This document shows, piece after piece, positions 14,701 to 40,373 of a DNA stretch of 64,000 nt. The first letter of the stretch is position 1. Every line of letters starts with the position of its first letter. Source of the stretch: a virus (Duplodnaviria > Caudoviricetes); the IMG/VR virus record IMGVR_UViG_3300026176_000228, positions 1-64,000 of that record; one strand, given 5' to 3'. Under the pieces are notes generated by a model, which did no database searches, was not told the origin of the DNA, and worked only from the letters and a program-made list of their open reading frames with translations. Position numbers and translations under genes: made by a program.

Positions 14701-15727
14701 TGAGTACAGATACAAGTTATTCAAAATAAAATGGACTGATTACGCTGCCTTACCCTCGTCTATACAACAGAGAACTAAACCGGTTTGGTATTGTGATGGT
14801 GCTCAATCTAATAAACTACCATACTCCATTGACAAGAGAACATTATTGGAACTAGCGGGCTGGTTTGTTAGTGAAGGTCATAGCCAAAATTTAAAGGAAT
14901 ATTGTTACGAGAATGGTAACAGGGCTGGTCAGACATGGCGTATAGCATTTACGCAAAATAAAGGCCAAGGATTGGATGCTATCAGAAATTTACTACTAAA
15001 TGCAGGCATTCAATTTTCTGAACACGAAAAAACAGAAAGATGCGCGCGACTGACCATTCACAGTAAAGTTTTGTATAGAGCTTTCACTGAATGGTTTGGT
15101 GTCGGAGCCAAAAATAAGAAAATTCCACGCTTTATCCTAAATTCATCCAGTGACGATCTTAGAGTCATGTTCGATGCCCTCATTGCTGGCGATGGTATAG
15201 TATTACCAACTGGCAAGTCGTATAGTTACCAAACTACTTCTCTGTCTCTCAGGGAAGCGATGATAGAGATAGGATTGAAATTGGGTTTCGGTGCTAGATT
15301 TAGACCGGTACAATCTGGCTGTTGGTTAATTAGCTTTCCTAGTTTTATGCTGAAGGGGACCATTAATCAAGAGAATAAAACTAGAATTCCTTACGATGGA
15401 GAGGTATGGTGTGTAACAACGAAAAAAACCGGTACTATATTAGTCGAGCACGATGGTAAGCACACTTTTGTAGGTAATTGCCCATTCGCTTTTAGAGGTT
15501 CGGCTTACGAGATGGCCCGCGAGCGTTATGATGGAGCCTTTGCTTTACAGCGCGTCGCGTGGCAGTTAGAACAAGGCTTAGGTCGCGTCAGACGCGGAGA
15601 CGCGAGTGACTATGACGATCCCGCACGTGGTATCATTCGCACATATGTAGCTATCGCAGATGGTTCTTGGACGAGAATCAAAAAGTACTTGAGTTCGTCC
15701 ATGTTAGAAAGTCTTGTCATAGACTAA
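11768..15727 (+). CDS. DinG/XPD-family Fe-S SF2 helicase precursor with two inteins (about 557 aa after splicing)
   Basis: Q-motif WRPYQ, Walker A APTG|SGKS, GRNNYPC..C..C..C cluster, DEGH, SAT, QGLGRVRRG. Confidence 0.88.
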   Translation: MPTPTDFDLQAPSWRPYQYETVQWAREPKQHNGVYVAQINEAPTGCHRIGQSILMANLSTKKVEDVMVDDLVMGDDGQPRRVLCLNRGIGRMYEISPTHGGDSFVVNEDHILTLVRTNISTHGRKVRRDCIDGQILDVSVKEYLTWSKSRKHIYKLYKTGITTTRTSDWIIEPYFLGLLLGDGCLSSHGINITTMDEEVVAECYRQADRFGLRITTQTKEHNKASSYFFVLPNHSSKKRDSVFHNEIGLLGLLDSGSDGKFIPPAYLRASTEDRYALLAGLLDSDGYLSKSTVYDYISKSKQLANDLAFLARSLGFSANVSECKKYCQTGGGGTYHRVCISGNIIEIPFRIARRIPPSERQQIKNHLRSGFKVKELETEPYYGFTLDGNGRYLLGDFTVTHNSGKSMSALAAGHKIGQTVILTHTRALQSQYEASYPNCVVLFGRNNYPCVYEENPQGLDLTAQDCSFPSKPSDCPQFYDCGYHTRKKHAREAQRAVLNYAYWLITYQKWHPALLVCDEGHNIPDIILNHVGTEINEHQRTTWRLPPFPLLSGEPVNGLFKPKNYAEPSEVARDWLDDCNTIVTQAVGTLNYKIKVDGANQRLIAQKRAAENLSGRIEACLTALATTPGEHWYINSGPGVAYYRGEVTPGFNCKPLTARYDFKRFCAPTQQQRLLIMSATIGNEAVFARELGVEEFDFYRTPAVWPAETRPVHVLDVPSMGKGAADKDPGIWNKQADAISKAILNLPRHWSGIILVSRKSEANLLAKRLADRGLQERIWVPPGADAQDYKPTNEQLAAWQERLEEVPNSIAVAWSFWEGVDAKESQILIAAKCLASDMRIFGPDGYKDIDSIKLGDKVFGTTPDGELIEDTVVSIIRKPYTGEMIHFHSKGYDVTVTPDHQMLVTHIKKDSPYEKIDAEAVNTSHMLPLRATSWNGESLPDQFTFEEFFDEKTIVYCQLLDFNTNKTWYNQLPSPFVFEYRYKLFKIKWTDYAALPSSIQQRTKPVWYCDGAQSNKLPYSIDKRTLLELAGWFVSEGHSQNLKEYCYENGNRAGQTWRIAFTQNKGQGLDAIRNLLLNAGIQFSEHEKTERCARLTIHSKVLYRAFTEWFGVGAKNKKIPRFILNSSSDDLRVMFDALIAGDGIVLPTGKSYSYQTTSLSLREAMIEIGLKLGFGARFRPVQSGCWLISFPSFMLKGTINQENKTRIPYDGEVWCVTTKKTGTILVEHDGKHTFVGNCPFAFRGSAYEMARERYDGAFALQRVAWQLEQGLGRVRRGDASDYDDPARGIIRTYVAIADGSWTRIKKYLSSSMLESLVID
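11903..12973 (+). mobile_element. Intein 1 (357 aa) with LAGLIDADG endonuclease, inserted in the Walker A motif
   Basis: Starts CHRIG, block B VNEDHILTL, LGLLLGDG and LAGLLDSDG, ends VTHN followed by Ser; AT-rich. Confidence 0.93.
14264..15478 (+). mobile_element. Intein 2 (405 aa) with LAGLIDADG endonuclease
   Basis: Starts CLASD, block B VTPDHQM, LAGWFVSEG and FDALIAGDG, ends FVGN followed by Cys. Confidence 0.92.
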
Positions 15728-15729
15728 AC

Positions 15730-15743
15730 TTGGCATATGCCAA
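15730..15743. promoter_or_regulatory. Dispersed palindrome copy 5 (TTGGCATATGCCAA)
   Basis: Intergenic, just after the helicase stop. Confidence 0.75.
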
Positions 15744-15762
15744 ATATCTAAGAAAGGTTATC

Positions 15763-16098
15763 ATGAGCAAAAAGTTGCAACGTAAATCCTTCCGTAAATG
15801 TGTCCTCGCGAATATTCGCGATATCACCACTATCTCACAGAAACCCTACACCCAAGTCACCATTGTAGTTAGTGACGAGTCCGGTGTCGATGGTTCGTTC
15901 TTCTCACCCGCGCGCGAGTTTCATGGTTTCAGTAAATGCAACGCGGGTGATGCTTGGGACGCAGAACTAGGCTATAAGATCGCACACGCGCGCGCGGTCA
16001 GAGAAGCGATTGACTACATGGAACAAGATACCGAAAAAGAAGCTTTTGTCTCTAGTATAGAAAAAGTTTTAGACCGCATCTTTCGCGATAGCTTCTAA
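15763..16098 (+). CDS. Hypothetical phage protein
   Basis: aaaggt RBS; GFSKCNAGDAWDAELGYKIA motif. Confidence 0.7.
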   Translation: MSKKLQRKSFRKCVLANIRDITTISQKPYTQVTIVVSDESGVDGSFFSPAREFHGFSKCNAGDAWDAELGYKIAHARAVREAIDYMEQDTEKEAFVSSIEKVLDRIFRDSF

Positions 16099-17066
16099 CT
16101 TTTAGCTGACCATCTGCGTCCCACGCCACAAGAGCAGGCGATTCTAGCATCTCCGCGAATCAAATCGCCTGCTCTTGTCTGGACAATCCCGCCTAAGCTA
16201 AACCCAATCAAGCACGTCCCGCCATCACAGAATACGGGTTCCCCACCGCTAACAGTATTCCACACGGTATTATCCCATCCTACTACCGGTTGTCCACTCA
16301 TATTCTCATACCAACTGCGCAGGACTTCATAAGGATAGGTCGAAGGACCGGTGCGCTCAACCCTGCCGTGATTGATTTGCATAATCTCAGGATGCTTATC
16401 CATGACTTGCACTAGCCGTTCCAGATTCGCCATCGGTGAGACATAGCCTGCCAACGCGCGCAGCATCGCGATATCTTCCGGCCAGTCTACTTCCACGCGA
16501 TAATTCCTGAAATAGAAATTCTTGGGTGGCTCATGATAAATCACCTTGAATTGGTCGCGGTTAGAGTGAAAGTAAACATCCACATGCTCGCGCGCGGTCG
16601 AACGCTGCACAATTTGTTCCCACGCGGCGCGACTATAAGGGAACTCGCGTGAGCCATACAGCGGTTGCACATGGGGAGCCAAGGCCCACTGCATAATATC
16701 GCCAGCTTGTTTCTCACAGACTTCTATGGCACGTAGAATCAATTCCCCAGCCATAAAGGGACAATCCCCTAAACCACGCAAGACCCACTTAGCTTCAGGA
16801 TGATACTGCTTGAGCGCGTCATCCATGCGCGAAACCACATCCACTTGTTGCCCGCGGAACACCGGCACATCTAAGGTCCGCGCGTACACGGCCAAGGGAT
16901 CATCGCTGCGTAGGCGCGTGGTCGCGAGAATGACGCGGCCAATCTTACTTAGACGTTTGATAACCCACCCAATCAAAGGTGTGCCACGGACATCCAGCAT
17001 GGCTTTACCGGGTAAACGTTCGCTGCCCATGCGGGCGGTGAGAATAATCGCTAAATCTTGGTTCAA
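16095..17066 (-). CDS. CMP-nonulosonate cytidylyltransferase (SpsF/PseF/KdsB-like) with C-terminal Cys-rich extension
   Basis: ILTARMGSERLPGKAM, RGLGDCPF, REHV, VEVDWPED. Confidence 0.88.
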   Translation of the reverse strand: MNQDLAIILTARMGSERLPGKAMLDVRGTPLIGWVIKRLSKIGRVILATTRLRSDDPLAVYARTLDVPVFRGQQVDVVSRMDDALKQYHPEAKWVLRGLGDCPFMAGELILRAIEVCEKQAGDIMQWALAPHVQPLYGSREFPYSRAAWEQIVQRSTAREHVDVYFHSNRDQFKVIYHEPPKNFYFRNYRVEVDWPEDIAMLRALAGYVSPMANLERLVQVMDKHPEIMQINHGRVERTGPSTYPYEVLRSWYENMSGQPVVGWDNTVWNTVSGGEPVFCDGGTCLIGFSLGGIVQTRAGDLIRGDARIACSCGVGRRWSAKS

Positions 17067-17198
17067 GGTCGGTCCTCAATATGAAAAATGGGAGCCAAAG
17101 CATCGGCTTCCGCGCGCGCGCGTCTAATATCATCCGCGGTCCAGTAATAACCCCACGGCCAGAGATGCATGCGCAACCAGCGTAGAAAATAGAATAAT

Positions 17199-17879
17199 TT
17201 ACCACACATTGTGTCCTTGCCCCCCATCGTAAGTTAGAATCTGTCCAGTAAGTCCGGGCTGCTGATATAGTGACACAATAAAGCGTGCGACATCCGCGGA
17301 TTTCAACAAGGGCGTCAGGAGCCGTGAACTCATATACGCGCGCTCGCGTGAATCGTTAGTTACCTGCTGCATCATGGTATCGCATTGACCTAAGCGCAGG
17401 GCAACAGACCTGAAACCGCTGTCGCGTTCTTCCTGTGCCACCGTTAGCGCGAAAGCTTCTAAACCAGCCTTAGATGCCGCATACAACCCCCTACCCGCGC
17501 GTGGCGACTCCGCATGAATCGAGCTAATATACACCAATAGCGCGCTCGGTTTCAGACATTCATACTGAAGCAGATGATGCGTCATAGCGATTGAGCCTTC
17601 CAGATTAGTATCCAGCACGTAGCGATAATCTTCATCGGTGTAGTCTATGACTGGCTTGATACGCGTGGTGCCATGCGCGAAAACTACTAAATCAAACTTA
17701 GCTTCCGCCATGTGGCGCACGATATAATCCGTGGCCCACCAACGCGTCAAGTCCAGCGCGATACTCTGCTGTTGGCCCTGGCGCGAGAGGCGCTTAACGA
17801 GCCAATCTTGACTTTCTAGTTCTGTGACAATCGCGCGACCCAGATTGCCTGTCGCACCGGTTACTAAAGCTTCAAACAT
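17199..17879 (-). CDS. Short-chain dehydrogenase/reductase
   Basis: TGATGNLG, ISS, YAASK. Confidence 0.9.
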   Translation of the reverse strand: MFEALVTGATGNLGRAIVTELESQDWLVKRLSRQGQQQSIALDLTRWWATDYIVRHMAEAKFDLVVFAHGTTRIKPVIDYTDEDYRYVLDTNLEGSIAMTHHLLQYECLKPSALLVYISSIHAESPRAGRGLYAASKAGLEAFALTVAQEERDSGFRSVALRLGQCDTMMQQVTNDSRERAYMSSRLLTPLLKSADVARFIVSLYQQPGLTGQILTYDGGQGHNVW

Positions 17880-19080
17880 CCATGTCTCCTAACTCACTTG
17901 CTGCCATGGTTGCATAAGCCCACGCTTGCTCCGTGGTGTCACCTGCGGTAATGATGAATAATTGTCTATCCGCGCAGTTCTGCCATTTCTGAATCGGGCC
18001 ATACGCGCGCGCGATGACATCCTTGACACCGGGCCTGGTCTGGAGCATGTGGACATGCTTAGGTTGTAGGTCAAAACCCTCAGGTAATGTGGGCGCGTAC
18101 GCGACACTGTACTTGAGCCATTTGGGTACCAAGTCCCGCCTATCAATGCGACCCGTCAAAGCATAATCCGCAAGGACTTTGACTAAATCACGCCCAGTCG
18201 CGTAGACTTGCGTATGAGTATGGTCGAAACCACCACTCCAGCGCGTCGCGCATTCCAAGATACACCAACCATGGTTTTGGTCATACATGAAATCAATTTT
18301 GAAGGGGCCAGTCTTGATATTGAGCTTCGACGCAGCTTCTTGGGCTAATTCCAGCATTCTAGCATCGGGTAAAGGTGCGGGATTGAGATGCCCCAATTCC
18401 AGAATTCCATCAGGTGCAAATTTACGCTCAGCCCCGTTGATATAAGTAACTTGCCCGTATTCGACAAACCAGTCTGTCGCGCGTTCGGGGCCAGAGAGAC
18501 ATTCTTCAATGACTACCGCGGTCGCGTATTTATTATATTCACGCGCGTAAGTAATGGCGTCTCTTAGCTGTTCAGGAGTATAGCACTTGGTAATCCCGCG
18601 CGAAGCTGAGTTATCCGCGGGTTTGACGATACAGGGAAAGGGTGATACACCTTGCTCGGTACAGCGTGCGTACCAGGAATCTATACCGTAAGCCGTGGTA
18701 TTGATTTGCCAGATGACTGTAAAAAGCGGGTGTGGCAAATCCAAGGTCACGCGCATTTTAGCTTTATTACGCGCGGTTTCCGCAGCTAAATAACTACACG
18801 CAGGTAAGTTATATATCTCAGCCAGCAGTGAAACTGTCGGACCGGCATCAATCGCGTCTGCAACCACTGCACTGGGCCGATGCTCTAATTCTTGCGCGTA
18901 CATACCATGCGCGTTGACATCATGGGTATCGAGTTGAATTACCGCGTCCGCGTATTCTGCACCAGCACAGTTGATATTTTTATCAGATACCAGGACATCT
19001 AAACCACGCTGCTTGAATTCCTTGATAATAGGAATTTGCAGTAGTCCACCACCAATAACCCAGGCGAAATCATTTTTCAT
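17872..19080 (-). CDS. ATP-grasp ligase
   Basis: IGGGLLQ, NKAKMR, CIVKPADNSASRG, IEECLSG, ILECATRWSGG. Confidence 0.88.
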   Translation of the reverse strand: MKNDFAWVIGGGLLQIPIIKEFKQRGLDVLVSDKNINCAGAEYADAVIQLDTHDVNAHGMYAQELEHRPSAVVADAIDAGPTVSLLAEIYNLPACSYLAAETARNKAKMRVTLDLPHPLFTVIWQINTTAYGIDSWYARCTEQGVSPFPCIVKPADNSASRGITKCYTPEQLRDAITYAREYNKYATAVVIEECLSGPERATDWFVEYGQVTYINGAERKFAPDGILELGHLNPAPLPDARMLELAQEAASKLNIKTGPFKIDFMYDQNHGWCILECATRWSGGFDHTHTQVYATGRDLVKVLADYALTGRIDRRDLVPKWLKYSVAYAPTLPEGFDLQPKHVHMLQTRPGVKDVIARAYGPIQKWQNCADRQLFIITAGDTTEQAWAYATMAASELGDMDV

Positions 19081-19081
19081 A

Positions 19082-19537
19082 TTACTCGCTTTCTGATAAT
19101 TGACGCTTGATAGCCCATACTAAAGCTTCGTGAACTGTAAAACTACGCTCGGCCATACCTGCATTACAATCCTCGCAAAGCCAGGCTAAGTTATCCGTAT
19201 GGTCGGCCCACTCAAGCGGCAAGCCATTAGTCCGAATATCTTTCTCGCTCAATAAATGCGCGACATGCATCGTGGTTGCACTTGCGTCTGCACCGCAAAA
19301 CTCACAACGATGATTGACGCGTCTTGCAATTGCATAGCGTACACTTAATTTAATACTATTAGAGCGCATGGGCGGGGGAGCAAGACCTTGTTCGTGTTTT
19401 GGAGCATTATATTGCCATTTATCACAAGCAGCACACCTTACCACCCCTTGTCCATTAGTGGGTGTTAAAATACCAAGTAACCCCCCACATCTTATACATG
19501 GTTTACGGAGTGGGTAATTCTCTGTTACTGCATCCAT
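19082..19537 (-). CDS. HNH endonuclease with N-terminal Zn ribbon
   Basis: CEFCG...HVAH...DNLAWLCEDCN. Confidence 0.8.
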   Translation of the reverse strand: MDAVTENYPLRKPCIRCGGLLGILTPTNGQGVVRCAACDKWQYNAPKHEQGLAPPPMRSNSIKLSVRYAIARRVNHRCEFCGADASATTMHVAHLLSEKDIRTNGLPLEWADHTDNLAWLCEDCNAGMAERSFTVHEALVWAIKRQLSESE

Positions 19538-19551
19538 ATTACTTCTATCTA

Positions 19552-20460
19552 TTATACCTTTCGTGCTACTTTCTTAGCGACCAACAAACTCTCTCTGCCC
19601 CAACCTAATTTCCGATACAACACTCCATATAACCGCCACGCGAGATTCCCCGTGCGCTTTTCAAACTCCAACCGCTTGCGGTGCAACTTCCGACCCAATT
19701 CATCATTCCCAATATACTTATAACCCATCAGGTAAAACAATTCCATCGGAAATGTCGCACCCGCATAAGTTACCTGGAAACCCGCAACTTCAAGCAGATC
19801 GCGAATACTTTTTCTAGTAAAGTAATTCAAATGCGGCTTCTGAATATACCAGTGCCCCTCACGCTTGGCGACTTTCTGCTGTAGAGGATTGAACTCATTG
19901 GGCACGATAACCATGATCTGACCTTGCGGTCCTACCAAGCCATTGCGTAACTGCATGACGAATACCAAGGGGTCCAAGATATGTTCTAGCACCAGAGCTA
20001 AGCGCACACTATCAGTCGTGCGCCGCACTAGCCAGGGTTGCAATTCATCCAAACTAGCCAAGGTACGACTAGGCAGCAAGCTGACCTTACGCGCACTGGC
20101 ACTCGGCTCGACACCCCAGGCTTCCCCGTAATGTTGATTGTAATAATGCAGCCAGTCACTCTGCCCGCTACCAATATCGTAAACTACCGGCGCGCAGACA
20201 GTTGCGCCGCGTCTCAACAGTTGACTCTGCCACTGAAAAGCACTCTGCCACAGACCGGCTTTGTACTCCCTCTCAGTTTTCTCGAACCAATCAGGACTGC
20301 CTGCACGGTAGAACTCATCATGCTCATAATAGGCGTCTACATCACTCTGGGACGGCAGGGGCATTTGATGGATGTAACCACAATCGCGGCATTGAATCGC
20401 GCGGATGCCGTTATGCTCCCACTCGCGTAAGGTTGTATGTTTTACTTGACGATCTGCCAC
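19552..20460 (-). CDS. Class I SAM-dependent methyltransferase (sugar-modifying type)
   Basis: CRDCG ribbon, VYDIGSG, GVEPS, VLEHILDP, IVPN, HLNYFT. Confidence 0.85.
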   Translation of the reverse strand: MADRQVKHTTLREWEHNGIRAIQCRDCGYIHQMPLPSQSDVDAYYEHDEFYRAGSPDWFEKTEREYKAGLWQSAFQWQSQLLRRGATVCAPVVYDIGSGQSDWLHYYNQHYGEAWGVEPSASARKVSLLPSRTLASLDELQPWLVRRTTDSVRLALVLEHILDPLVFVMQLRNGLVGPQGQIMVIVPNEFNPLQQKVAKREGHWYIQKPHLNYFTRKSIRDLLEVAGFQVTYAGATFPMELFYLMGYKYIGNDELGRKLHRKRLEFEKRTGNLAWRLYGVLYRKLGWGRESLLVAKKVARKV

Positions 20461-21263
20461 GTTTCCTCCAGTGCGGCCTGGACATTCAAAGCCAGCTTAA
20501 CCGTGCCCTTAGTATCCGTGCCCGCCATATACTCACTCCACATGCGCGCGAACATCTGATTATCGGGCTGCACATTCATGTGGCACAGGCGTTCATCCTT
20601 ACGCGCGAGACTGATATCGTTGACGCGTTCAGTGGGCGCAATCGTCACGCCATCTATCAACTTGAACCTGCCGTGTCCGTCGTAGAACTCGCCATTGACC
20701 AGCCAGTACTCGCGCAACGCGATAGACTGGTAATAATCATTCACGTTATGCAGAGCATCCGTGACTGCCAATTCATCTTCACCGGTAATATACGCGGTCA
20801 TTACTAACGCGTGACTGATATGGTCAATCAAGAGCGACCAGTTGGGCAATTCCGCACGGTACTGCACACTGCGAATCTTGAGTTCATCATATTCCATCAA
20901 ACGACTGACTTCGCGCAGGGCTTCGATTTGCGGATGCCAGAGCCAGTTATAGGCCACCATAAACTGCTTCGGCAATTTGGCATATGCCAAAAGATTAAGT
21001 TGCTCTAAATCACATAAGGGTTTCTCACATAGTACTGGCACACCTAATTCCGCGCACGCGGTCAACTGCATAATATGCATATTAGGTGGCGAAGCAATTA
21101 CCACACGATCCCAGTCGCTTTCCTGTAGAGCTACACGCCAATCCAGATAATTCGCGCCAGTGGCAGGATTAGGGTCCACTGTTGCTACGGTCAAACCTGC
21201 ATGCTCAGCATATTGTGCGTGGCGTCTACCGGCGCGACCATAGCCTAGAATCAAACAATTCAT
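20442..21263 (-). CDS. Gfo/Idh/MocA oxidoreductase
   Basis: GYGRAG, IASPPNMH, LCEKP, VAYN, DHISH. Confidence 0.88.
   Translation of the reverse strand: MNCLILGYGRAGRRHAQYAEHAGLTVATVDPNPATGANYLDWRVALQESDWDRVVIASPPNMHIMQLTACAELGVPVLCEKPLCDLEQLNLLAYAKLPKQFMVAYNWLWHPQIEALREVSRLMEYDELKIRSVQYRAELPNWSLLIDHISHALVMTAYITGEDELAVTDALHNVNDYYQSIALREYWLVNGEFYDGHGRFKLIDGVTIAPTERVNDISLARKDERLCHMNVQPDNQMFARMWSEYMAGTDTKGTVKLALNVQAALEETWQIVK
20977..20990. promoter_or_regulatory. Dispersed palindrome copy 6 (TTGGCATATGCCAA), intragenic
   Basis: Exact match to the motif. Confidence 0.7.
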
Positions 21264-21661
21264 TCAACAAAACCTCTTTCTGGATCAAACGGTTCTGCTT
21301 GGTAATCTCGCAAGGGAAGTATGATATTTGAATCGGGGTCTTGTTTTAGATTCTCTAGTAATTCCCCTACTTGTTCGATGGCCGTTTCGATTTCAGATAA
21401 AGATATAGTCAAACTGGAATCTCTACGTAAAAACCATGTCAAGCCTAAATTATCTCGGATAGCACAATATCCATCGCTGTTCCATGGAATAGCGATATCG
21501 TATGTTGGACAAAAGTAACCATTGTGTGGATCGAATGTTTCAAGTAACTTCCAATTAGTATCATCTTTAAGATTGTCTTTTGAATAACAATAATGTGTAA
21601 AGCCGTAAGTCAAGGCTTCGTCTCTGGCCCATGTATAATCATGACGACGATTATTAGCCAT
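21260..21661 (-). CDS. Hypothetical AT-rich protein inserted in the sugar cluster
   Basis: ATG 21661 after aaggg; lower GC than neighbours. Confidence 0.6.
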   Translation of the reverse strand: MANNRRHDYTWARDEALTYGFTHYCYSKDNLKDDTNWKLLETFDPHNGYFCPTYDIAIPWNSDGYCAIRDNLGLTWFLRRDSSLTISLSEIETAIEQVGELLENLKQDPDSNIILPLRDYQAEPFDPERGFVE

Positions 21662-21662
21662 T

Positions 21663-22523
21663 TTAGCCCTTCCTGGTTTCCAGTAGTGGCCGCAGACCAT
21701 CATAAGGGTCACTGCGCCACAGGCGTTCATGATACTCACTCGCGTTGATGGACTTGCCATAGAGGCCTACCGCGCTGGTAGCAATATCCAAATCATGCTT
21801 GAGTTTCACTACTTCCACAGGTGTCCAGCAATGCCCCATCTGCGTCTCAACGCCATCCGTATCTGCCAAGTCAAAATGTAATTCTATGACGTTGGCTTGC
21901 TGGCCTAAGACCGCCTGCATGACGACCGGCAGCGAGTGGCTATGGTCCGACCAGCCTATCGCGCGCACACTGTAATTGGTCTTGAAGGTTTCGCGTAGGC
22001 TCGCGATAGTTGCCAGATTACATTCGCCAGGCGGGACAGGATAAGCTGAAACACAGTGCAATAGCGTGATATCGGTACAGTTACCGCCATACAAAGCATT
22101 GACCGCGTTGATAATCTCAGGCACAGTTGCCATGCCTGTTGAGAGCGTTACTGGCTTACCAGTCTGCGCGACTTGGCGTAAAAAGTCGTGTTGCAGGACT
22201 TGATAACTGCTGACTTTGTAGAAATCTACGTAGTCATAAAGTTCTTCTACCGCGTGCGGGTAAAAAGGCGTGCAAGCAAATTCTAGGCCATAATCATGCG
22301 CGGTACGAGACAGAGCAGATAACCAAGAAACAGGTAATTCCCATTCTTTGCGCGCGCGGAGTTCAGGTTTCTTATGCAAGGCCCACGGCGCAAAGAGTTG
22401 GTCAAGCTTGAATAACTGAAACTTGACGGCCTGACAACCGACTTCCGCAGCGGTTTCGATAAGCTTCAACGCGCGCGTGAGATCGCGATTGTGGTTAGAT
22501 GAGATTTCCGCGATGAGTTTCAT
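21663..22523 (-). CDS. neuB: Nonulosonic acid synthase (NeuB/PseI/LegI/SpsE family, no SAF domain)
   Basis: IAEISSNHN, KFQ, YKVSS, LSTGM, LHCVSAYP, GWSDH, IELHF. Confidence 0.93.
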   Translation of the reverse strand: MKLIAEISSNHNRDLTRALKLIETAAEVGCQAVKFQLFKLDQLFAPWALHKKPELRARKEWELPVSWLSALSRTAHDYGLEFACTPFYPHAVEELYDYVDFYKVSSYQVLQHDFLRQVAQTGKPVTLSTGMATVPEIINAVNALYGGNCTDITLLHCVSAYPVPPGECNLATIASLRETFKTNYSVRAIGWSDHSHSLPVVMQAVLGQQANVIELHFDLADTDGVETQMGHCWTPVEVVKLKHDLDIATSAVGLYGKSINASEYHERLWRSDPYDGLRPLLETRKG

Positions 22524-22526
22524 GAA

Positions 22527-23741
22527 TTAGCGATTCCTAAACAGCACAGTCGGTAGCTTATCGCGCATCAGCGTCTCTAACTTCGCACTCCCCATCGCGT
22601 CCACTTCTGCGCGAATCACCTTCGCGGCCTCATACGTCTTTTTCTCATCATCCAAGGTATGACACAGATTCGGGAAGTTAGGCCGATTCATCAGAATCCC
22701 CTGCTCGGCCATGCGCCGGATAAAGTAAGCCTTCTCGGAATCGCTCGCGAACTGCATCAACGACCGCGGCGCATGTCCGATTACCTGCCAGCCTGCCGCG
22801 CGCATGTCGGTCATCAAGGCGCTACCCATCTCATAAATCTGCGCGACCGATTGTTTATTCCAGTTCTCCAGAACATACTTGGCCGCGGCAAGACTCATAG
22901 CGTCACCAAAGTTGGTTGAAGATACAAATACCGGGTCATTGCGACTAAACCAACTCATATACTCCGTAGGGCCAACCAGCGCGGCAATCGGAAAGCCATT
23001 ACCCAAAGCTTTGCCTAAACATATTAGATCGGGTTGGACACCATAGACTTGACTCGCGCCGCCCATCGCGTAACGAAAACCGGTCACGACTTCATCCATA
23101 ATCAGTAGACTCTTGTGTTGATTGCAAAAGGCACGCAACTTTGTGTAATAATCTTTTTCTGGCTCTACGATACCTTGTTCCAGAATGACGCCAGCGTAGT
23201 CGTAATTTTCAGGTAAGGCGTTGAAATCAAAACTTTGAATCCACTCATGCGCATCGTAGATAATGCCATGGGCGGGAGTAGTGGTGGCAACAAACGAATC
23301 ATGCCAACCGTGGTAGCCTGATGAGGCCACTGCTTGGTGTGAGATTTTCATCGCGCGCGCGAGGCGAATAGCGGCATCACAAGCATCACTGCCAGTCTTG
23401 AGCCAGCGCACCTGCAAGGGTGTATTAGCCCAACCCGGTACGTGCTGTTGCATTTGATGCACCAAGAGTTCTGCGACTTCTTCTTCAAGATAGGATGGCA
23501 GCGAGAAGCTTAGCCCCCGCCGCGCGTGATACATCAGGTAATTTGACCACTTAGCCTTCGCGACCCCATCCCCATGACCCAGTAAACACGCGCCTAGACT
23601 GCTCACCCAATCGAGATACCATTTGCCATCATTGCCTTTGAGATACGCACCTTGGCCTTCGCGAATATATTGAACCGGAAAATCTACGCCCCAAAAATCA
23701 GGTGATTTCGAGAATGTAGAGGCAATCGGTGTGTATTTCAT
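22527..23741 (-). CDS. Class III PLP aminotransferase (GSA-mutase-like)
   Basis: GQGAYL...YLDW, KTGSDA, GYHGWHD, DEVVTGFR, PDLICLGKALGNG; start MKYTP after aaaggt. Confidence 0.9.
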   Translation of the reverse strand: MKYTPIASTFSKSPDFWGVDFPVQYIREGQGAYLKGNDGKWYLDWVSSLGACLLGHGDGVAKAKWSNYLMYHARRGLSFSLPSYLEEEVAELLVHQMQQHVPGWANTPLQVRWLKTGSDACDAAIRLARAMKISHQAVASSGYHGWHDSFVATTTPAHGIIYDAHEWIQSFDFNALPENYDYAGVILEQGIVEPEKDYYTKLRAFCNQHKSLLIMDEVVTGFRYAMGGASQVYGVQPDLICLGKALGNGFPIAALVGPTEYMSWFSRNDPVFVSSTNFGDAMSLAAAKYVLENWNKQSVAQIYEMGSALMTDMRAAGWQVIGHAPRSLMQFASDSEKAYFIRRMAEQGILMNRPNFPNLCHTLDDEKKTYEAAKVIRAEVDAMGSAKLETLMRDKLPTVLFRNR

Positions 23742-23751
23742 AGCAACCTTT

Positions 23752-24531
23752 CTAGTACTGACAATGGTCTTCCATAAAATCAACTACATGTTCTACGCCG
23801 TACAAAGGCGGCTTCATTGTAGGACAACCAATATACTGATGCTCTAATTCAGTCCAAGCTTTACTGATATTACCGCGCGTGACATATGGTAGGCCGTAAA
23901 TACTGGCCTCATCTGCGTGTTCATTAGATTGCACTACTGACACCACGCGACAGCCCAAAGCCAGAGCTTCAAAAGTAGTCTGCCCCCAACCGCAAATCAC
24001 GTTTTGGTGGTCATTGAGTAAATCCAGCATTTCCGTATGCGTTGGCGCGACTATCAAATTAGCGTCAGGAGTTTCAATTGTGCGGCCAAAATTAGGTCCA
24101 ACCACAACTGTCGCGGTGGTTGCGCGTGCGCTTTCGATTAATTTTTCAGTCAATTTCCAACCATCATAGCCGCCCATCGAAATCAACAGTTTCCTGCTCT
24201 TAAGTCTAGGCCATGCAGTTAGTTTTCTAATGCTCGCGTCAAGCAATAAATACTTACTACCCGTCAAAGTCCGCGGACGGGGTGAATGCAAAGGATGCCA
24301 AGACCAATCCTCAGGCTCCTGTGGCAACATGCCCATCAGTAATCTTTGCGCGCCCATGGGTGCAGCATGCTCGCGCGCGGTAAAATCACTGGGATAATCC
24401 ACTACCAACCAATGGGGATCGCGATCAGTAATTTCATGTCCGCGCGCACGTAATTCCTGCGCCAGAATCTCACACCTGATTTTATGTCCTAGAACTGTAT
24501 CATCATTCAGGTAATCCAGTCTCACTCGCAT
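23752..24531 (-). CDS. PseG/SpsG-like UDP-sugar hydrolase (GT-B fold)
   Basis: LGHKIRC..LA, LVVDY, GSKYLLL, LISMGGYD, GQTTFEA. Confidence 0.75.
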   Translation of the reverse strand: MRVRLDYLNDDTVLGHKIRCEILAQELRARGHEITDRDPHWLVVDYPSDFTAREHAAPMGAQRLLMGMLPQEPEDWSWHPLHSPRPRTLTGSKYLLLDASIRKLTAWPRLKSRKLLISMGGYDGWKLTEKLIESARATTATVVVGPNFGRTIETPDANLIVAPTHTEMLDLLNDHQNVICGWGQTTFEALALGCRVVSVVQSNEHADEASIYGLPYVTRGNISKAWTELEHQYIGCPTMKPPLYGVEHVVDFMEDHCQY

Positions 24532-24538
24532 CGTTAAC

Positions 24539-25468
24539 TCAATTCTCTAGCTGGGCTAGTAACTCCTTGGCTGTAATTCTCCGCGCCGTCTGTGATTTGA
24601 ACTCATCTGCCACTTCAAACTTACCTGCTTTATTATGCACAATTCGATATAATTTTGGCAACACTGTTTCGACGCACTCACCGGGTGCGACTAAGACTTC
24701 ATGCACTTTTTCACCCGCGCCTAAGGGCAACAGCAGCCATTTGGTATAATCTGGCTCAAACTGTTCGGCCAAGTCATGCAGACTGAACGCGGGGATATCA
24801 CCAGGGACAAACGTCTCACCGCCCTGCATTTCACGTAAAGCTTGCTGCACCAAATCTACTGCTTGAGACTTGAGCATAAAGAAGCGCGTGGTATCAGGTG
24901 TACGCACCATGATGGGTAAACCGCGGGCTACCTGCTGTCGCCAGATAGGGATGACTGAGCCATTGGAACCCATGACATTGCCATAGCGTACTGCGGAGAA
25001 CAAAGTCGTAGCTGTACTATGACTATTCCAAAGATATTCCGCGATGGCCTTAGTGTGACCATACAGGTTGGCGGGGGCCGCACATTTGTCCGAGGAAATA
25101 AACAGATTCTTCCGCACTCCGGCTAACTGACATTGCCGTGCGACGTTTAGTGCGCCATCCACGTTAACGCTCTTGAACTCCAGGCTCTGCACTTGCCCAA
25201 CATCGACTTGTTTCAAGGCCGCGGCATGCACGACGATATCACGCCCTCTAACCGCGCGCGCGATCACTTCGGGATCGCGGATATCCCCCAAGAACAATTC
25301 CACTTGCGGAAATTGCTGGCGAAACAAGGTCTGCTTATGGGGATCGCGCGATAAAATCGCAACAGAAAAACCTTCCGCGAGGAAGGCTTTGGTCAACGCA
25401 TACCCAAGTGTCCCGGTGCCTCCGGTAATCAGGCTGCGCGGATGCAGGTTCCCGTCTGCGTGTGTCAT
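24539..25468 (-). CDS. UDP-GlcNAc 4,6-dehydratase (PseB/CapD family)
   Basis: ITGGTGTLG, GDIRD, HAAALKQV, SSDK, YGHTK, RYGNVMGSNGSVIP, TRFF, GEKVHE. Confidence 0.92.
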   Translation of the reverse strand: MTHADGNLHPRSLITGGTGTLGYALTKAFLAEGFSVAILSRDPHKQTLFRQQFPQVELFLGDIRDPEVIARAVRGRDIVVHAAALKQVDVGQVQSLEFKSVNVDGALNVARQCQLAGVRKNLFISSDKCAAPANLYGHTKAIAEYLWNSHSTATTLFSAVRYGNVMGSNGSVIPIWRQQVARGLPIMVRTPDTTRFFMLKSQAVDLVQQALREMQGGETFVPGDIPAFSLHDLAEQFEPDYTKWLLLPLGAGEKVHEVLVAPGECVETVLPKLYRIVHNKAGKFEVADEFKSQTARRITAKELLAQLEN

Positions 25469-25496
25469 ATAACTAGCTCCGTGTAAGTATTATAAA

Positions 25497-26303
25497 TTAG
25501 GAAGTACGAATATCTACAAACTCTGCGACCGCGGGGACTTCGCGCAAAGCATCGGCAAACACCACATGTGTATTCGAGGCCATCTTCATTCTGCGCCAAA
25601 AGGCATAGTTGAAATCCGCGGCATGCTGCGTATCAACATCTTCGGAAAACCAGACTACCGTATCCACTAAGCCCGCGAGTTCGTCTGCAACCGTCGAAGA
25701 GCTACAGGTTGCCAGGACAATCACTTTCACGCCATCTAACACGTTATGCCAGAACTCCGGGGGTGCAATGCCATCACTGAGCAAGATACCCTCTGATCCG
25801 GCATGGGCGGAAATCAGAATCCAGGGGTATAACGTATTGTCCTGTCTGCGCCGCCGTAACTCCGCGGTAATACTGGCTTGGGTCGCGCGTACTAAACGAT
25901 GGAACAGGACTTCCGCGCGCCGAATCGCAGCCCGGTCGCGCTGAAAAATATCCATATCATCGCCACTGATGATCAGCAGTGGCTTAGGTGGCAAAACTGG
26001 CAAGGGTGCAATCTTGAGTTGGGTTTCCAATTCTGCCACGCGCTGAGCCAAGCGAATATTCTCGGCTTCCAATTGCTCAATGCGCCGGTCTGACGCGTCC
26101 AATTGCCGTCGCAATGTATTGACGGTAGCAGTGAGGTCTTTAATGGTGGTCGCCATATTGATATCTTCTTGCGATGCAGGCAGTAAAGCAGCAAGGCGGG
26201 GTGGGTGACGCACGACATACCATAAGCCTACCGCGAAAAACGCCAGCAAGCCTAAAAATATAGCTACATCATGGGAATTAACAGTCACGGAAACGGGCCT
26301 CAT
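25497..26303 (-). CDS. Membrane-anchored coiled-coil protein with CHAT/caspase-like domain
   Basis: TM helix, heptads, then ISAHAG...VIVLATCSS His/Cys pattern. Confidence 0.65.
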   Translation of the reverse strand: MRPVSVTVNSHDVAIFLGLLAFFAVGLWYVVRHPPRLAALLPASQEDINMATTIKDLTATVNTLRRQLDASDRRIEQLEAENIRLAQRVAELETQLKIAPLPVLPPKPLLIISGDDMDIFQRDRAAIRRAEVLFHRLVRATQASITAELRRRRQDNTLYPWILISAHAGSEGILLSDGIAPPEFWHNVLDGVKVIVLATCSSSTVADELAGLVDTVVWFSEDVDTQHAADFNYAFWRRMKMASNTHVVFADALREVPAVAEFVDIRTS

Positions 26304-26661: not shown

Positions 26662-26824
26662 CAGTTGGTGGTAGAATTTCCACGGGCGTGGTATTGATTT
26701 GGATATTCAGAATCATATCTTCCAGAGCCTGGACCACGGACAACATCTTACCTACCGTTGTACCGGGCTGAATGTAAATTACACCATTAGTATACACTGT
26801 AACTAATATATTTGCATCTGTCAT
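26645..26824 (-). CDS. Small hypothetical protein (59 aa)
   Basis: aaggag RBS; MTDANILVTVYTNG... fills the intergenic gap. Confidence 0.55.
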   Translation of the reverse strand: MTDANILVTVYTNGVIYIQPGTTVGKMLSVVQALEDMILNIQINTTPVEILPPTDVAAS

Positions 26825-26834
26825 TTTGTACTCC

Positions 26835-37331: not shown

Positions 37332-38516
37332 CTAAAGTCCTGCTAATTCGCGAATCCAATTAGCTAAACGCCAGTAAGCTTTGCCGTCTACTGCGCCAAA
37401 ATACTTGGTCACAAACGCAGACGTATCGACCGGCGGCTCCGCAACGCCATCTAAGACTGATACTAACGCATCTACATCCGCAGGGCAAGTCAGGACTTCG
37501 GGATCATTAGCAAAGCCATTGATGGCCGCGAGGCGGATAAAAGGATAGCACGCGGCTTCGACCAGAACATTGGATGGCCCTAGCGCAATCGCGAGGTCAG
37601 TCGCGTTGAGAAACACATCCAGGTGCTGGTCAGAGACGATACAGCGCACGCCATATTCTTCCGCGAGTTTTACATGCTGTTCGACGTTTTGGCTGCGTGG
37701 ATGGCACTTGACCAGATATTGATAGTAAGGTCGTCGTGAGGCCGCAGTAAGAAATGCGCGATAGCCTTCTTCGACTACATCGGTGCAACCGAGCAGGTTA
37801 GTGTCCTGTCGCCAGGATGAGAAGTAGGTGATGACAGGTTGATTAGCCTGGAGATTGAGCAAGCGTTGAGCATCCGCGCGGAAAGGCTTGAGATTCGCGA
37901 AACGGTCTGCGGCCAAGGTCGCAGTCATGCGAATTTCAGCTTTAGGGTCGCGCGCGTGATACCATTGCGCCTGGAATGGCCCTGCTGCCGCGATACGCTT
38001 CGCGGTCACGATATCATGAATATCAGTACCGATAGGTCCGCGCTCATCGGTGTCCATGTAGACCGCGTGCGGGATATGCAGGCAAGGTACGCCATGCGCT
38101 TCCGCCCAAGCCGCCATCAGGCGCGTCGCGGGTTCCACGTCGTTATGCACGACAATCACATCAGGCTTGAGTTCGTCCAGCACTAACGCGACGTTGATGG
38201 TTTCCGGTAAGCGCGGATAGAGATACGGTGCAATCAGTTTCTGAAACATATCCCAACTGGCTTGGTCTAGTTCATCAGTTTTTTCGACTTGCGTCAGCAG
38301 GGCCAGAGTTTGCAGCATCTCCGCGGCATGCGCAAAAGCCAGATCGCGCAGAGGACCAACATTGAGCTCAGAAAGCAGTTGATTCGGGATATCCGCATCC
38401 GCGAAGAGCTTACTGACTCCCGCGTGCGTGGTCCAAATTTCAACCTGACCCTTGAGTTCCTTGAGAATCGGCAGGAATGCGGGCTGCGCGCTAAAGAGAA
38501 TCTTCGGTTGTGGCAT
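37332..38516 (-). CDS. GT-B glycosyltransferase, candidate CMP-nonulosonate transferase
   Basis: VPCLHIPHA, VKCHPRS (HP motif), SNVLVEAA; start MPQP. Confidence 0.65.
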   Translation of the reverse strand: MPQPKILFSAQPAFLPILKELKGQVEIWTTHAGVSKLFADADIPNQLLSELNVGPLRDLAFAHAAEMLQTLALLTQVEKTDELDQASWDMFQKLIAPYLYPRLPETINVALVLDELKPDVIVVHNDVEPATRLMAAWAEAHGVPCLHIPHAVYMDTDERGPIGTDIHDIVTAKRIAAAGPFQAQWYHARDPKAEIRMTATLAADRFANLKPFRADAQRLLNLQANQPVITYFSSWRQDTNLLGCTDVVEEGYRAFLTAASRRPYYQYLVKCHPRSQNVEQHVKLAEEYGVRCIVSDQHLDVFLNATDLAIALGPSNVLVEAACYPFIRLAAINGFANDPEVLTCPADVDALVSVLDGVAEPPVDTSAFVTKYFGAVDGKAYWRLANWIRELAGL

Positions 38517-38709
38517 TGTCACTATGAGATTCCTGTTCCATGGTGGCCGCGAGCCAGCCATTATTGAGTACTTGAATCAGTTCATAGGTAAAGAGTCGGG
38601 GAATATTGACACCTGCAACTTCAAACGGTGGTACATCTAAGGACCAAGTTTCGAGAAAATGCAAGTGTTGTGCATTGACTTCTGCGGCGCGCGCGAGGGC
38701 ATCAGGCAT
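38491..38709 (-). CDS. Hypothetical protein
   Basis: aaggag RBS; lies between the two transferases. Confidence 0.5.
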   Translation of the reverse strand: MPDALARAAEVNAQHLHFLETWSLDVPPFEVAGVNIPRLFTYELIQVLNNGWLAATMEQESHSDNATTEDSL

Positions 38710-40373
38710 TGGTAGGCTCCTTGGGCAACCAGTTGACGAAATGTAGCATAGGCAGTCTGCCGCGTTGAATCCGCACATCTTTGGCGATTTGCTGGTAAAC
38801 TTTTTCGTAAGCAGGCAATTGGTTGATTGCCAGTAGACTGCGATAGTAAGGCACGCGCGCGGTCGCGGTTTCTTGTTCCTGAATCAAATTACGGATCACT
38901 CGCGCCATGGTATCGTACCAGGCTTTGTTGTCATTGGGAATCGCGTAGCCTAGATGCTCTAAGTCGCGATAAGGTTCGCCCTGCGTGCCAATCCACGGTA
39001 CACCTGCCAAGCCGCATTCCAGAGCTTTAATCCAACTTCTGTGCTGGTCGTAGATACCGCAGAGAGGCGCGAGGCCAATATCAAAGGTCTTGACAACTGT
39101 CGGCCAAAGCGCAGGTTCTACACCAGGTTGGAGCAGTTTATTGTCGCGCGGCACCGGCAGCATGTCATAGATACGCGGGTCATTGCCGCAGAGCATAAAC
39201 ACAACCTGTGGAAACTTCTTCGCAATGTCATACGCGGCTTCACGAATTTCCGTACCCCACCAAGAGTCATAGTGCGAGACACTGCCACCCCAACCGATAA
39301 CTACGCGGTCAGTCAATTTGAGTTTAGCTTTTTGTTCCGCACGCGTAGGCATGACTTCCGGCCAGAAAGTATGGTCCGCGTAGTTAGGCAGGTAGTAACC
39401 TTGGACTGCGTAGCTCCAGTCTTGCAACAGCAGACGATTGGGCGCGGTCAAACCATCGCTCTTGCGCAGGCCGCGTTCGAGAATGTCTAAAGGTGCCGGA
39501 TCAAGGTCGTGCTTGTTCTCAATCCAGAACGCGTGCGCGGGATTACTCCAGGGTAAGATATGGTAGGCATCGTCTAAGTCAATCGAGACAGTCTTGCCTA
39601 GACCCTGGAAGTATTCAATCGCGTCAATGACTTTCTCGTTGATGACGTTACGCTGCACGCGTACGTGGTCCGCTTGCATGATCCAGTCTTGGATGACCGG
39701 ATTGATGTAATCCGTGAAACCAGAGACGTGGATTAATTTGGCAGACCAGTCTTTGAACGCGGGATCGTGTTCCGCGCGATAATTGATGGCATTCGCAGGC
39801 GTGAGATCACGCCACTGGCTCACATAATCTGGTCTTCCGACACAGTGTAGGACTATCTCATATTCCTGATAAATTCAGGAACCGGGGCGCTGATGAGGTC
39901 TTATTGTTGGGACTCAACCTCTAAGTCTCTGAACCTTCCGTGATACCTTAGCCCATCACGGCTTGGCTGCGGATTACCCGATAATGTTGCCAACATCTCT
40001 TGGGCTTCCCGATTAGATTGGCTACCCTGGCAATCTAACTTTCAATTCACCCCGTTTTTCAATGCTAGTTACCTAGCAAAGCTGCCACCCAGACAGTTCC
40101 ATTCAGTTTGGCTCGGAAATTAATTTTTGTTACATCTACCTAAGATAGATGGTCAAGTCATTTCTGCTTGACTCTGCATCTTTACTTATACATGCAGCCC
40201 GGACTTTGCCTTCATCCCGTAGGATGCGCCCCATCAAGTCTCTACACCTTCCATCTACTGATGGCTTGGCTCGACGTTGCCCACTCTTGGGGTGTTCATC
40301 GAATTTGAGGCGTTCACTGACTTAGTTACCTAAGTTTCGGACTAACATCCGCGTAGATAAAAACTATTTTCAA
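38702..40373 (-). CDS. GT4-like glycosyltransferase, 3 exons: 40373-40347, 40113-40093, 39820-38702 (388 aa, MKIVFIYAD-SQTEWNC-SQWRDL...)
   Basis: RBS aaagga plus TTG; in-frame after removing two group I introns; DLDDAY, IGWGGS.SH, DIGLAPL, RSWIKALE. Confidence 0.85.
39821..40092 (-). ncRNA. Group I intron 2 of glycosyltransferase (272 nt, ORF-less)
   Basis: 5' exon ends in U (tgt) with P1 ctgtc/ggcag U.G pair; core ggttcagagactt ... gagatagtcc (P7); terminal G. Confidence 0.88.
40114..40346 (-). ncRNA. Group I intron 1 of glycosyltransferase (233 nt, ORF-less)
   Basis: P1 cggat/gtccg with U.G pair; gtgtagagactt ... ggcaaagtcc (P7); gcagaaatgac P9 region; terminal G. Confidence 0.88.

Follow-up and report, generated by a model that had tools for sequence, protein, structure and literature searches.

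What would a tailed phage do with a near-complete set of enzymes that probably make a nine-carbon, sialic-acid-like sugar? The question is raised by the IMG/VR record IMGVR_UViG_3300026176_000228, a single viral contig of 104,755 bp from an uncultured wastewater phage, of which the first 64 kb were analysed as the window. In the list of open reading frames (ORFs) for positions 12000-30000, nine enzyme genes, a gene for an HNH endonuclease and an ORF of about 133 amino acids (aa) formed an unbroken minus-strand run from 25468 to 16095 (Table 1). The original prediction had read these genes as a nonulosonic acid pathway, and all nine functions that it named were present as contiguous minus-strand ORFs in Pfam and NCBIfam searches; the HNH endonuclease gene and the ~133-aa ORF were additional to its list. 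We consider it likely that the cluster is a genuine, conserved phage module which makes a tailored nonulosonic acid of the pseudaminic acid (Pse) type, an L-sugar, activated with cytidine monophosphate (CMP). The cluster is a version of a known type of bacterial pathway with a genetic characterisation, the Sfm-type Pse pathway. In Shewanella oneidensis, sfmABCDE encode a 290-aa NeuB, a thiamine pyrophosphate (TPP) enzyme, a short-chain dehydrogenase/reductase (SDR), a methyltransferase and an ATP-grasp protein (PMC3765264).

Position of the cluster and its conservation among phages

As predicted, the tail genes are immediately followed by the cluster, which closes the late operon. A tail tape measure gene (31594-34800; PHROG match at 6.5e-50), distal tail genes and two weak tail-tube matches were all found upstream of it on the minus strand. 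The guanine-plus-cytosine (GC) content was 0.48-0.52 in the cluster, compared with about 0.50-0.52 in the adjoining minus-strand tail and late genes. A scan of positions 15500-32000 for promoters and terminators gave no sign of a separate transcription unit for the cluster, with 24 promoter-like sites where 20.2 were expected and 10 terminator-like sites where 16.3 were expected. The record is about 69% complete according to CheckV and belongs to the IMG/VR class 'linear'.

Megablast of the cluster against GenBank phages gave no match. When viral databases were searched, the same cluster was found at the same position, with 25-51% identity, in related records (G002-G006). As shown by tblastn, G002-G006 share with the phage the genes for two GT-B proteins (GT1 and GT2), a tail-completion-like gene, two tube genes, the tape measure gene and distal tail genes. 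Their tail genes are followed by genes for PseB (33-51% identity), NeuB (25-39%), ATP-grasp (25-38%) and a cytidylyltransferase (37-50%, to homologs of 324-353 aa). The Gfo protein was 33-38% identical in G003 and G004, and the SDR was 39% identical in G005, the sole relative in which an SDR homolog was noted; weak PseG-like homologs were also present in the phage relatives. GT1 homologs were detected at 16 IMG/VR loci; four of the records concerned exceed 45 kb, and each of these four encodes a NeuB in a short open frame. The 324-353-aa cytidylyltransferase occurred in four records, three of them GT1 records of more than 45 kb and the other a 38-kb fragment. At least four diverged records of uncultured phages thus have the gene set in this place. 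No DegT-type aminotransferase, tyrosine integrase or serine recombinase was found in six family records, one of which is rated 100% complete; all the viral records used here are metagenomic and most are incomplete.

The tailoring genes, which lie among the core genes, differed between relatives. In G004 they comprised a split transketolase, an SDR, sulfotransferases and a further methyltransferase; G003 carried a radical-SAM/SPASM enzyme and a protein resembling a reductase of 3'-phosphoadenosine 5'-phosphosulfate (PAPS); G005 carried a sulfotransferase and a cupin. Judged by this shared core and the differing tailoring genes, the core genes are old in the phage lineage, whose ways of decorating the sugar are still diverging. 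The gene content also suggests sulfated sugar derivatives in some family members. The sulfur genes of the relatives were sulfotransferases and one PAPS-reductase-like gene (L194:12973-13800, L195:128-943, L196:12339-13004 and L192:14280-15050).

Contigs of strains about 90% identical to the phage, obtained from four microbial fuel cell and wastewater runs, covered the cluster together with its neighbouring genes to the left and right; positions 26621-27822 had no cover, and no contig joined across them. Near-identical sequence was best represented in microbial fuel cell metagenomes (shares of 0.25-0.32), followed by wastewater runs; shares in the range of 0.2-0.32 correspond to related strains and not to this exact phage. 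Contigs from two studies (X1 and X6) joined position 19080 to 19566 with only 'CGCT' between, and the HNH gene was absent from them. The HNH gene is therefore a recent mobile insertion between the ATP-grasp and methyltransferase genes and no part of the pathway. The ~133-aa ORF was likewise skipped in contigs of related strains, which joined 21257 to 21654 (X19) or 21113 to 21654 (X5), and no homolog of it was found in the phage relatives; it may be another mobile or accessory insert. A joint between 23792 and 24524, which would delete the PseG-like gene, was rejected as unreliable, because a single contig shows it and the shorter of its two sides has just 25 letters. Contigs from an RNA library (X19) covered parts of the cluster (methyltransferase and aminotransferase) and tail genes, but DNA can be present in libraries of that kind.

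On the plus strand, an ORF of 1322 aa (11759-15727) converges on the cluster, and its Hint and LAGLIDADG homing-endonuclease domains indicate one intein or more. In a single run (X5), contigs joined 14263 to 15506 with 27 other letters between, so that 1.24 kb are missing in some strains.

Enzyme families and the proposed route to the sugar

The PseB-like dehydratase matched Polysacc_synt_2 with 202.6 bits, which exceeds the cut-off. It scored 212.9 bits with TIGR03589, the model of inverting PseB, compared with 134 for FnlA and 46 for LegB, and stayed below the equivalog cut-off of 407.75. Its top match in the PDB was FlaA1/PseB of H. pylori (2gn4; 1.8e-45), followed by CapE, with the retaining, PglF-type WlaL much lower. 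The PseG-like protein has a shortened N-domain and matched TIGR03590 in its C-terminal half only (48.5 bits; cut-off 153.55). When it was aligned with its counterparts from four phage relatives and with PseG of four bacteria, G15-H16-x-x-R19, D45, G183 and E188 were invariant; the N-terminal His presumably corresponds to the catalytic residue of PseG. The cluster carries this PseG-like protein and no NeuC-type epimerase. Because of the PseB and LegB scores of the dehydratase, its top match to FlaA1/PseB and the GH..R motif of the PseG-like protein, the sugar is most likely of the Pse type and not of the legionaminic acid (Leg) type.

NeuB matched PF03102 with 175 bits, above the cut-off, and two more specific models below theirs (PseI, 163.8 bits with a cut-off of 340.25; NeuB, 157.3 bits). 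It is without a SAF domain, and it was 50-53% identical over its full length to SAF-less bacterial homologs of about 285 aa, including those of Shewanella species. These belong to a very large family that spans Geobacter, Shewanella, Syntrophomonas and many other phyla. The nearest homologs (86-91% identity) were on short uncultured contigs. Searches with NeuB gave just three weak matches among GenBank phages and, in a metagenome scan, bacterial-type relatives only, at 51% identity or less. In the tree, NeuB grouped with bacterial SfmA-type enzymes. NeuB was about 50% identical to these enzymes, as against 25-39% to the NeuBs of phage relatives (L192, L194 and L196). Replacement of the NeuB gene inside a conserved cluster may have occurred; the tree is compatible with it, and long branches make the placement unsafe. 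Geobacter-type bacteria are among the nearest bacterial NeuB relatives, which is a lead for the host only.

The cytidylyltransferase exceeded the cut-off of PF02348 (75.1 bits; cut-off 22.6) and is predicted to be a PseF-type CMP-sugar synthetase. Its phylogeny was uninformative, as the phage branch had a length of 2.7 and could not be placed. The methyltransferase was 32-35% identical to the Methyltransf_23 (MT23) family of bacterial Sfm-type loci and 36-40% identical to those of phage relatives. The ATP-grasp protein was similar over its full length to the ATP-grasp family of the bacterial clusters (E values up to 3e-45; 25-30% identity), and the SDR had weak similarity to the SfmC-type SDR cluster (~1e-9).

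Table 1. Genes of the putative nonulosonate cluster and the two GT-B genes in the window.
Feature	Coordinates	Strand	Match or basis
PseB-like inverting UDP-GlcNAc 4,6-dehydratase/5-epimerase, 309 aa	24539..25468	-	Polysacc_synt_2 1e-59; TIGR03589
PseG-like UDP-sugar hydrolase, short N-domain, 259 aa	23752..24531	-	TIGR03590 8.7e-13
Class III (HemL-like) pyridoxal phosphate (PLP) aminotransferase, proposed PseC replacement	22527..23783	-	Aminotran_3 1.4e-36
Short SAF-less NeuB-family nonulosonate synthase, SfmA/PseI type, 286 aa	21663..22523	-	PF03102 2.2e-51
~133-aa ORF, variable, probably outside the pathway	21260..21661	-	no Pfam/NCBIfam match
Gfo/Idh/MocA NAD(P) oxidoreductase	20442..21263	-	PF01408 2.9e-9
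S-adenosylmethionine (SAM)-dependent methyltransferase, Methyltransf_23 type	19552..20460	-	PF13489 8e-13
Free-standing HNH homing endonuclease, outside the pathway	19082..19537	-	PHROG HNH matches down to 9.4e-8
ATP-grasp carboxylate-amine ligase, SfmE-like, proposed N-acylating enzyme	17872..19080	-	ATP-grasp_4 6.3e-14
Short-chain dehydrogenase/reductase (SDR)	17199..17879	-	adh_short 2.7e-21
CTP_transf_3 cytidylyltransferase, 323 aa, C-terminal extension of ~75-120 aa	16095..17066	-	PF02348 8.9e-21
GT1, GT-B protein, K-x-H-P motif, TagB/TagF-like and 2-epimerase-like, candidate transferase	37332..38561	-	PF04464 and PF02350 in homologs
GT2, GT4-like group-1 glycosyltransferase, main exon 38702-39823	38702..40373	-	PHROG glycosyltransferase 2.6e-8

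Two enzymes of the textbook route had been predicted to be missing, and the search of the record bore this out. No acetyltransferase of the PseH/LegH type (PF00583 or PF00132) was found in the 104.8-kb record, which is about 69% complete, and no DegT-type aminotransferase (PF01041) was found in the whole of it. Maf (PF01973) had no match in the record, and neither an SfmB-type TPP enzyme nor a transketolase was found among the cluster ORFs with Pfam and NCBIfam.

A class III aminotransferase stands in the cluster instead of a DegT-type enzyme, as predicted, and is the sole aminotransferase in this record, in five related phage records and in five further viral records. It matched HemL models at about 1e-51, far short of their cut-offs. 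The PLP-binding Lys258 and Asp230, the Asp of the motif DEVVTGFR, were invariant in all aligned members. Identity was 41-49% to the enzymes of the four NeuB-bearing phage relatives, 29% to that of the G006 fragment and 26-29% to the aminotransferase of bacterial clusters. Metagenomes held more than 120 clusters of homologs at 41-86% identity, none of them from a named isolate, and a search of GenBank phages returned HemL-like genes only. The closest solved relatives include C-6' aminotransferases, which act on sugar aldehydes. An alignment of the metagenomic homologs was used to scan IMG/VR, and neighbouring genes were scored within 10 kb of 80 loci (L199-L278). PseB-like genes were found at 70 of these loci, NeuB at 58 and both at 54. 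A cytidylyltransferase was present at 51 (with a second type at 13 more), a GNAT acetyltransferase at 45 and a Gfo-type oxidoreductase at 33. DegT gave a weak match at only 4 of the 80 loci and none in five whole viral records (59-88% complete). The class III enzyme is hence the sole aminotransferase beside canonical Pse steps in viruses, which supports its putative role as a replacement of PseC.

The following route is proposed. The PseB-like enzyme would convert uridine diphosphate-N-acetylglucosamine (UDP-GlcNAc) to UDP-4-keto-6-deoxy-L-AltNAc, and the class III aminotransferase would aminate C4 in place of the DegT-type PseC. The ATP-grasp enzyme may then acylate the new amine with a carboxylic acid at the expense of ATP, by analogy with SfmE and in place of the acetyl-CoA-dependent PseH; N-acylation by the ATP-grasp protein had been suggested before, and SfmE of Shewanella offers a precedent (PMC3765264). 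The PseG-like hydrolase would remove UDP and release the free hexose, the short NeuB would condense it with phosphoenolpyruvate (PEP), and the cytidylyltransferase would activate the product with CMP. The Gfo/Idh/MocA protein and the SDR could oxidise and reduce, that is epimerise, a hydroxyl, and the methyltransferase could methylate the sugar or its acyl group. Of the earlier claim that the phage makes its own CMP-nonulosonate, the logic of a Pse-type route on phage DNA held, and the product itself is deduced from homology.

Several points weigh against this route. Every specific NCBIfam match (PseB, PseG, PseI/NeuB and KdsB-like) was well below its curated cut-off, so that the cluster enzymes are to be read as divergent members of their families. 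The phage is without the TPP or transketolase enzymes that stand beside the ATP-grasp gene in most bacterial loci. As the record is about 69% complete, genes absent from it may be encoded in the remainder of the genome. Bacterial loci with the class III aminotransferase mostly have DegT as well (17 of 20), and the class III gene is placed between those of PseF and an aldo/keto reductase. The enzyme may for this reason act at another position or on an oxidised hydroxyl, and the phage would then be reliant on PseC of the host.

Possible acceptor of the sugar and other possible uses

Both in this phage and in its relatives, the genes of GT1 and GT2 are flanked by head-side genes and by those of the tail tube. 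GT1 co-occurs with NeuB in every related record of more than 45 kb, and GT2 is 41-58% identical in the relatives, where it always adjoins GT1. The AlphaFold2 (AF2) model of GT1 had a GT-B fold with a mean confidence score (pLDDT) of 93. The His of the K-x-H-P motif was invariant in GT1 homologs; a D/E-D/E-G (EEG) motif was not conserved across them. The family NF046086 comprises transferases of Pse and Leg derivatives from Tannerella forsythia, namely Tanf_01245, TFUB4_00887 and BFO_1060 (PMC5420450). GT1 resembles these enzymes in being a TagB-like GT-B protein with an H-P motif in the C-terminal domain. The match of GT1 to NF046086 was weak (22.7 bits; cut-off 200) and not specific: weak matches occurred in 5 of 11 family records and also in 9 of 14 control genomes. 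Fold comparison with Foldseek and VIA did not indicate the donor; UDP-GlcNAc 2-epimerases/NeuC (Z scores of 20-21), GT4 enzymes (~19) and TagF/TarL (~18.5) were inseparable at Z scores of 18-21, and a profile search of the PDB was weak. GT1 is a reasonable candidate for a CMP-sugar transferase and could equally be a sugar-modifying enzyme. Atlas neighbours of GT2 belonged to Glyco_trans_1_4 families, mostly from tailed phages. Searches of GenBank phages with GT1 and GT2 by tblastn gave no match, and a tail protein encoded at 26835-28292 had none in the scan of viral contigs.

We tentatively favour, with somewhat less than even confidence, the attachment of the nonulosonate to structural proteins of the phage through one or both of the GT-B enzymes. 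A target on the virion is preferred because of the late-operon position of the cluster, the absence of integrases and of Maf, the co-conservation of the glycosyltransferases and the precedent in mycobacteriophages. The absence of export and polymerase genes, from which the original prediction had argued for decoration of virions or another cytoplasmic target, was borne out by the ORF annotation, in which there was neither a flippase nor a polymerase. On the other side stand the fold of GT1, about equally close to UDP-GlcNAc 2-epimerases/NeuC, GT4 enzymes and TagF, and the type of GT2, for which UDP- or GDP-sugars are the usual donors. That the glycosyltransferases and the cluster are conserved together in a single phage family is, moreover, no independent evidence and may reflect shared ancestry.

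Use of the sugar on the host surface is unlikely in our judgement, although it survives better than the other alternatives. Host Maf or other transferases would place the altered CMP-nonulosonate on flagellin, pili, S-layer or lipopolysaccharide (LPS), and the receptors of the infected cell would change, which might shut out competing phages or keep progeny off debris. EpaA and EpaB, the sole phage nonulosonate enzymes shown by experiment, do convert Pse of the host capsule (PMC12053666), but the present phage carries a near-complete pathway and not one or two modifying enzymes. The bacterial homologs of the cluster serve flagellin glycosylation together with Maf (PMC3765264; Maf at 14 of 80 loci), and a host transferase could use the sugar of a phage without its own Maf; two glycosyltransferases of the phage are nevertheless conserved with the cluster. 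Accessory genes are common at the ends of late operons. Late-strand genes behind tail genes, with promoter-like sites not enriched, would however be expressed late for remodelling the cell surface, and the absence of integrases and resolvases from six family records (one rated complete) makes long-term lysogenic conversion unlikely.

Somewhat less probable still is a tailoring module that depends on the host for the PseC and PseH steps or for ready-made Pse. The class III aminotransferase, the Gfo protein and the SDR would then add an amino group at an oxidised hydroxyl, and the ATP-grasp enzyme and the methyltransferase would decorate the sugar. This would agree with the lack of DegT and acetyltransferase in the record, with bacterial loci in which the class III aminotransferase is extra to DegT and linked to PseF and an aldo/keto reductase, and with the C-6' aminotransferases among the closest solved relatives of the enzyme; EpaA and EpaB also act on finished Pse, at C8 (PMC12053666). 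With Pse supplied by the host, however, the family would have no need of its own PseB, PseG-like protein, NeuB and cytidylyltransferase. The class III aminotransferase stands together with PseB and NeuB, and without DegT, at over 50 viral loci (45 of 80 have a GNAT), which fits the C4 step instead.

A role of the sugar or of the two GT-B enzymes in hypermodification of phage DNA is very improbable. We know of no nonulosonate-modified DNA. BshA/MshA-like GT-B enzymes of phages do glycosylate 5-hydroxymethylcytosine (5hmC) DNA (bioRxiv 10.1101/2023.12.21.572611), GT1 and GT2 are GT-B proteins, and BshA is among the fold neighbours of GT1. Yet neither a TET/JBP dioxygenase nor a C5 cytosine methyltransferase was found in the record, the glycosyltransferase genes stand among head and tail genes and not among genes of nucleotide metabolism, and the gene of the thymidylate synthase family (7985-8776) is a bona fide, ordinary ThyA (386 bits; equivalog cut-off 327). 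Misassembly of host DNA onto the phage contig, for which only the bacterial affinity of NeuB outside the phage lineage (~50% identity) might speak, has a negligible probability, being contradicted by phage genes on both flanks, by a GC content matching that of the adjoining minus-strand tail and late genes, by conserved synteny in several viral contigs that are independent and diverged and by contigs of close strains from several studies that span the cluster and its neighbours on both sides; the cluster is phage DNA, as originally predicted.

In the most far-reaching reading, a widespread and apparently lytic family of tailed phages would itself make a CMP-activated, acylated and methylated, in some members sulfated, Pse-type acid, with a class III enzyme for PseC, and would transfer it to its own capsid or tail with GT-B enzymes. 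We consider this combined reading possible rather than probable.

Significance and comparison with known systems

In the literature, we found no description of a phage-encoded nonulosonate pathway, no class III aminotransferase described as acting in such a pathway and no report of nonulosonate on phage particles. The components and the type of pathway are known from bacteria, and a phage pair that modifies Pse and virion glycosylation in mycobacteriophages were already known. New here are a phage family that conserves the gene set, the wide occurrence of PseB, class III aminotransferase and NeuB together at viral loci, and the testable claim of a PseC replacement. Nonulosonic acids shape the recognition of bacterial surfaces by phages, immune systems and other cells, and the roles known for phages until now were to bind these acids, to degrade them and, in one case, to epimerise the sugar of the host. 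If the combined reading is true, this would be the first sialic-acid-like bacteriophage coat built wholly from viral genes. Should the virion be the acceptor, sialic-acid-like sugars may serve phages to cloak or tune their particles, which would be relevant to adsorption, to persistence in biofilms and to how the immune system recognises therapeutic phages. If PseC has a hitherto overlooked substitute in the class III aminotransferase, this would bear on the reading of unannotated bacterial and viral clusters, and the clusters would be compact natural gene sets for unusual derivatives of CMP-pseudaminic acid.

The canonical Pse pathway of Campylobacter and Helicobacter proceeds through PseB, PseC, PseH, PseG, PseI and PseF. 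The phage cluster shares with it the steps of an inverting, PseB-type dehydratase and a cytidylyltransferase, and it has candidates for the UDP-sugar hydrolase and the PEP-condensing synthase. It differs in that PseC, of the DegT fold, appears to be replaced by a class III enzyme, PseH (a GNAT) is absent and the synthase is without SAF.

The closest architecture was found in bacteria. Eighty bacterial genome loci with a short NeuB were collected, all their ORFs were clustered and representatives were annotated. PseB was present at 41 of them, DegT at 52, PseF-PseG at 58, MT23 at 45, ATP-grasp at 45, an SDR at 37 and Maf at 14. The recurrent order was PseB, DegT (PseC), short NeuB, PseF, an optional pair of class III aminotransferase and aldo/keto reductase, and PseG, often fused to PseF. 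There followed Methyltransf_23, a TPP enzyme or split transketolase, an SDR, ATP-grasp and a GH57-like gene, with Maf nearby in the 14 loci. The optional pair lay between unfused PseF and PseG, beside DegT, in about a quarter of the Sfm-type clusters (for example L025, L030, L036-L038, L047 and L049), a design with a likeness to that of EpaA (CTP_transf_3 with aldo/keto reductase).

In S. oneidensis, orthologs of PseH, PseG, PseI and PseF were not recognised, and sfmABCDE were needed for flagellin O-glycosylation with a 274-Da mono-N-acetyl Pse-type sugar and an O-methylated moiety of 236-264 Da; deletion of SfmE led to a smaller flagellin modification (PMC3765264). The Shewanella system also includes pseB, pseC, Maf-1 and Maf-2. 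SO_3261, which is SfmA, was deleted as pseI, and Pse-dependent glycosylation was lost (bioRxiv 10.1101/2023.12.03.569772). The phage cluster shares with the Sfm system a short SAF-less NeuB, an SDR, a SAM methyltransferase and an ATP-grasp gene clustered with PseB, and the lack of a recognisable PseH. The product in Shewanella is a mono-N-acetyl, Pse-like sugar that bears a further, methylated moiety. Unlike the Sfm loci, the phage has no DegT/PseC, TPP enzyme (SfmB), GH57-like gene or Maf, and it has no flagellin. It adds the class III aminotransferase, has a Gfo/Idh/MocA protein where bacteria have an aldo/keto reductase, and keeps PseF and a shortened PseG separate, in a virus and behind tail genes. 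The original prediction had been of a non-canonical sugar, argued from the lack of an acetyltransferase and a class III enzyme instead of DegT. These features held; the design is not unique, given the widespread Sfm-type architecture of bacteria and the common viral contigs with PseB, class III aminotransferase and NeuB.

In Acinetobacter baumannii prophages, Pse is epimerised at C8 by EpaA, a fusion of CTP_transf_3 with an aldo/keto reductase, and by the SDR EpaB (PMC12053666). They too are phage-borne Pse enzymes, and a CTP_transf_3 protein with an SDR is also what the last two genes of the cluster encode. The Epa system consists of two genes in temperate prophages, has a fused aldo/keto reductase, depends on psaA-F of the host and changes the host capsule, whereas here a near-complete pathway is carried by phages without an integrase.

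Mycobacteriophages have two glycosyltransferase genes among their virion structural genes, as does this phage. To our knowledge, they use nucleotide sugars of the host and carry no sugar biosynthesis pathway; here a putative CMP-sugar pathway is on the phage too. In the mycobacteriophages, the glycosyltransferase genes have been taken to suggest glycosylation of the capsid (PMC11256854).

The remaining comparison is with other viruses. Viral contigs of 82-158 kb (L001-L004, e.g. L002:26-11083) carried a canonical Pse set with PseB, a DegT aminotransferase and a SAF-bearing NeuB, together with a formyltransferase, a cytidylyltransferase, Maf-like (MptE-like) proteins, GT4 genes and a carbamoyltransferase. 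Among L199-L278, dozens of viral contigs of 20-160 kb (e.g. L215, L252 and L269) often had a formyltransferase, a PIG-L deacetylase and GT4 beside the cassette; no paper describing cassettes of this kind was found in the literature. These IMG/VR cassettes have in common with the present cluster PseB, the class III aminotransferase, NeuB, a cytidylyltransferase, a Gfo or aldo/keto oxidoreductase and the lack of DegT. Most of them have a GNAT, a SAF-bearing NeuB and GT4 or Maf-like genes beside the pathway, whereas the present phage family has no GNAT and carries ATP-grasp and MT23 genes, joined in this phage by a NeuB of the SfmA type.

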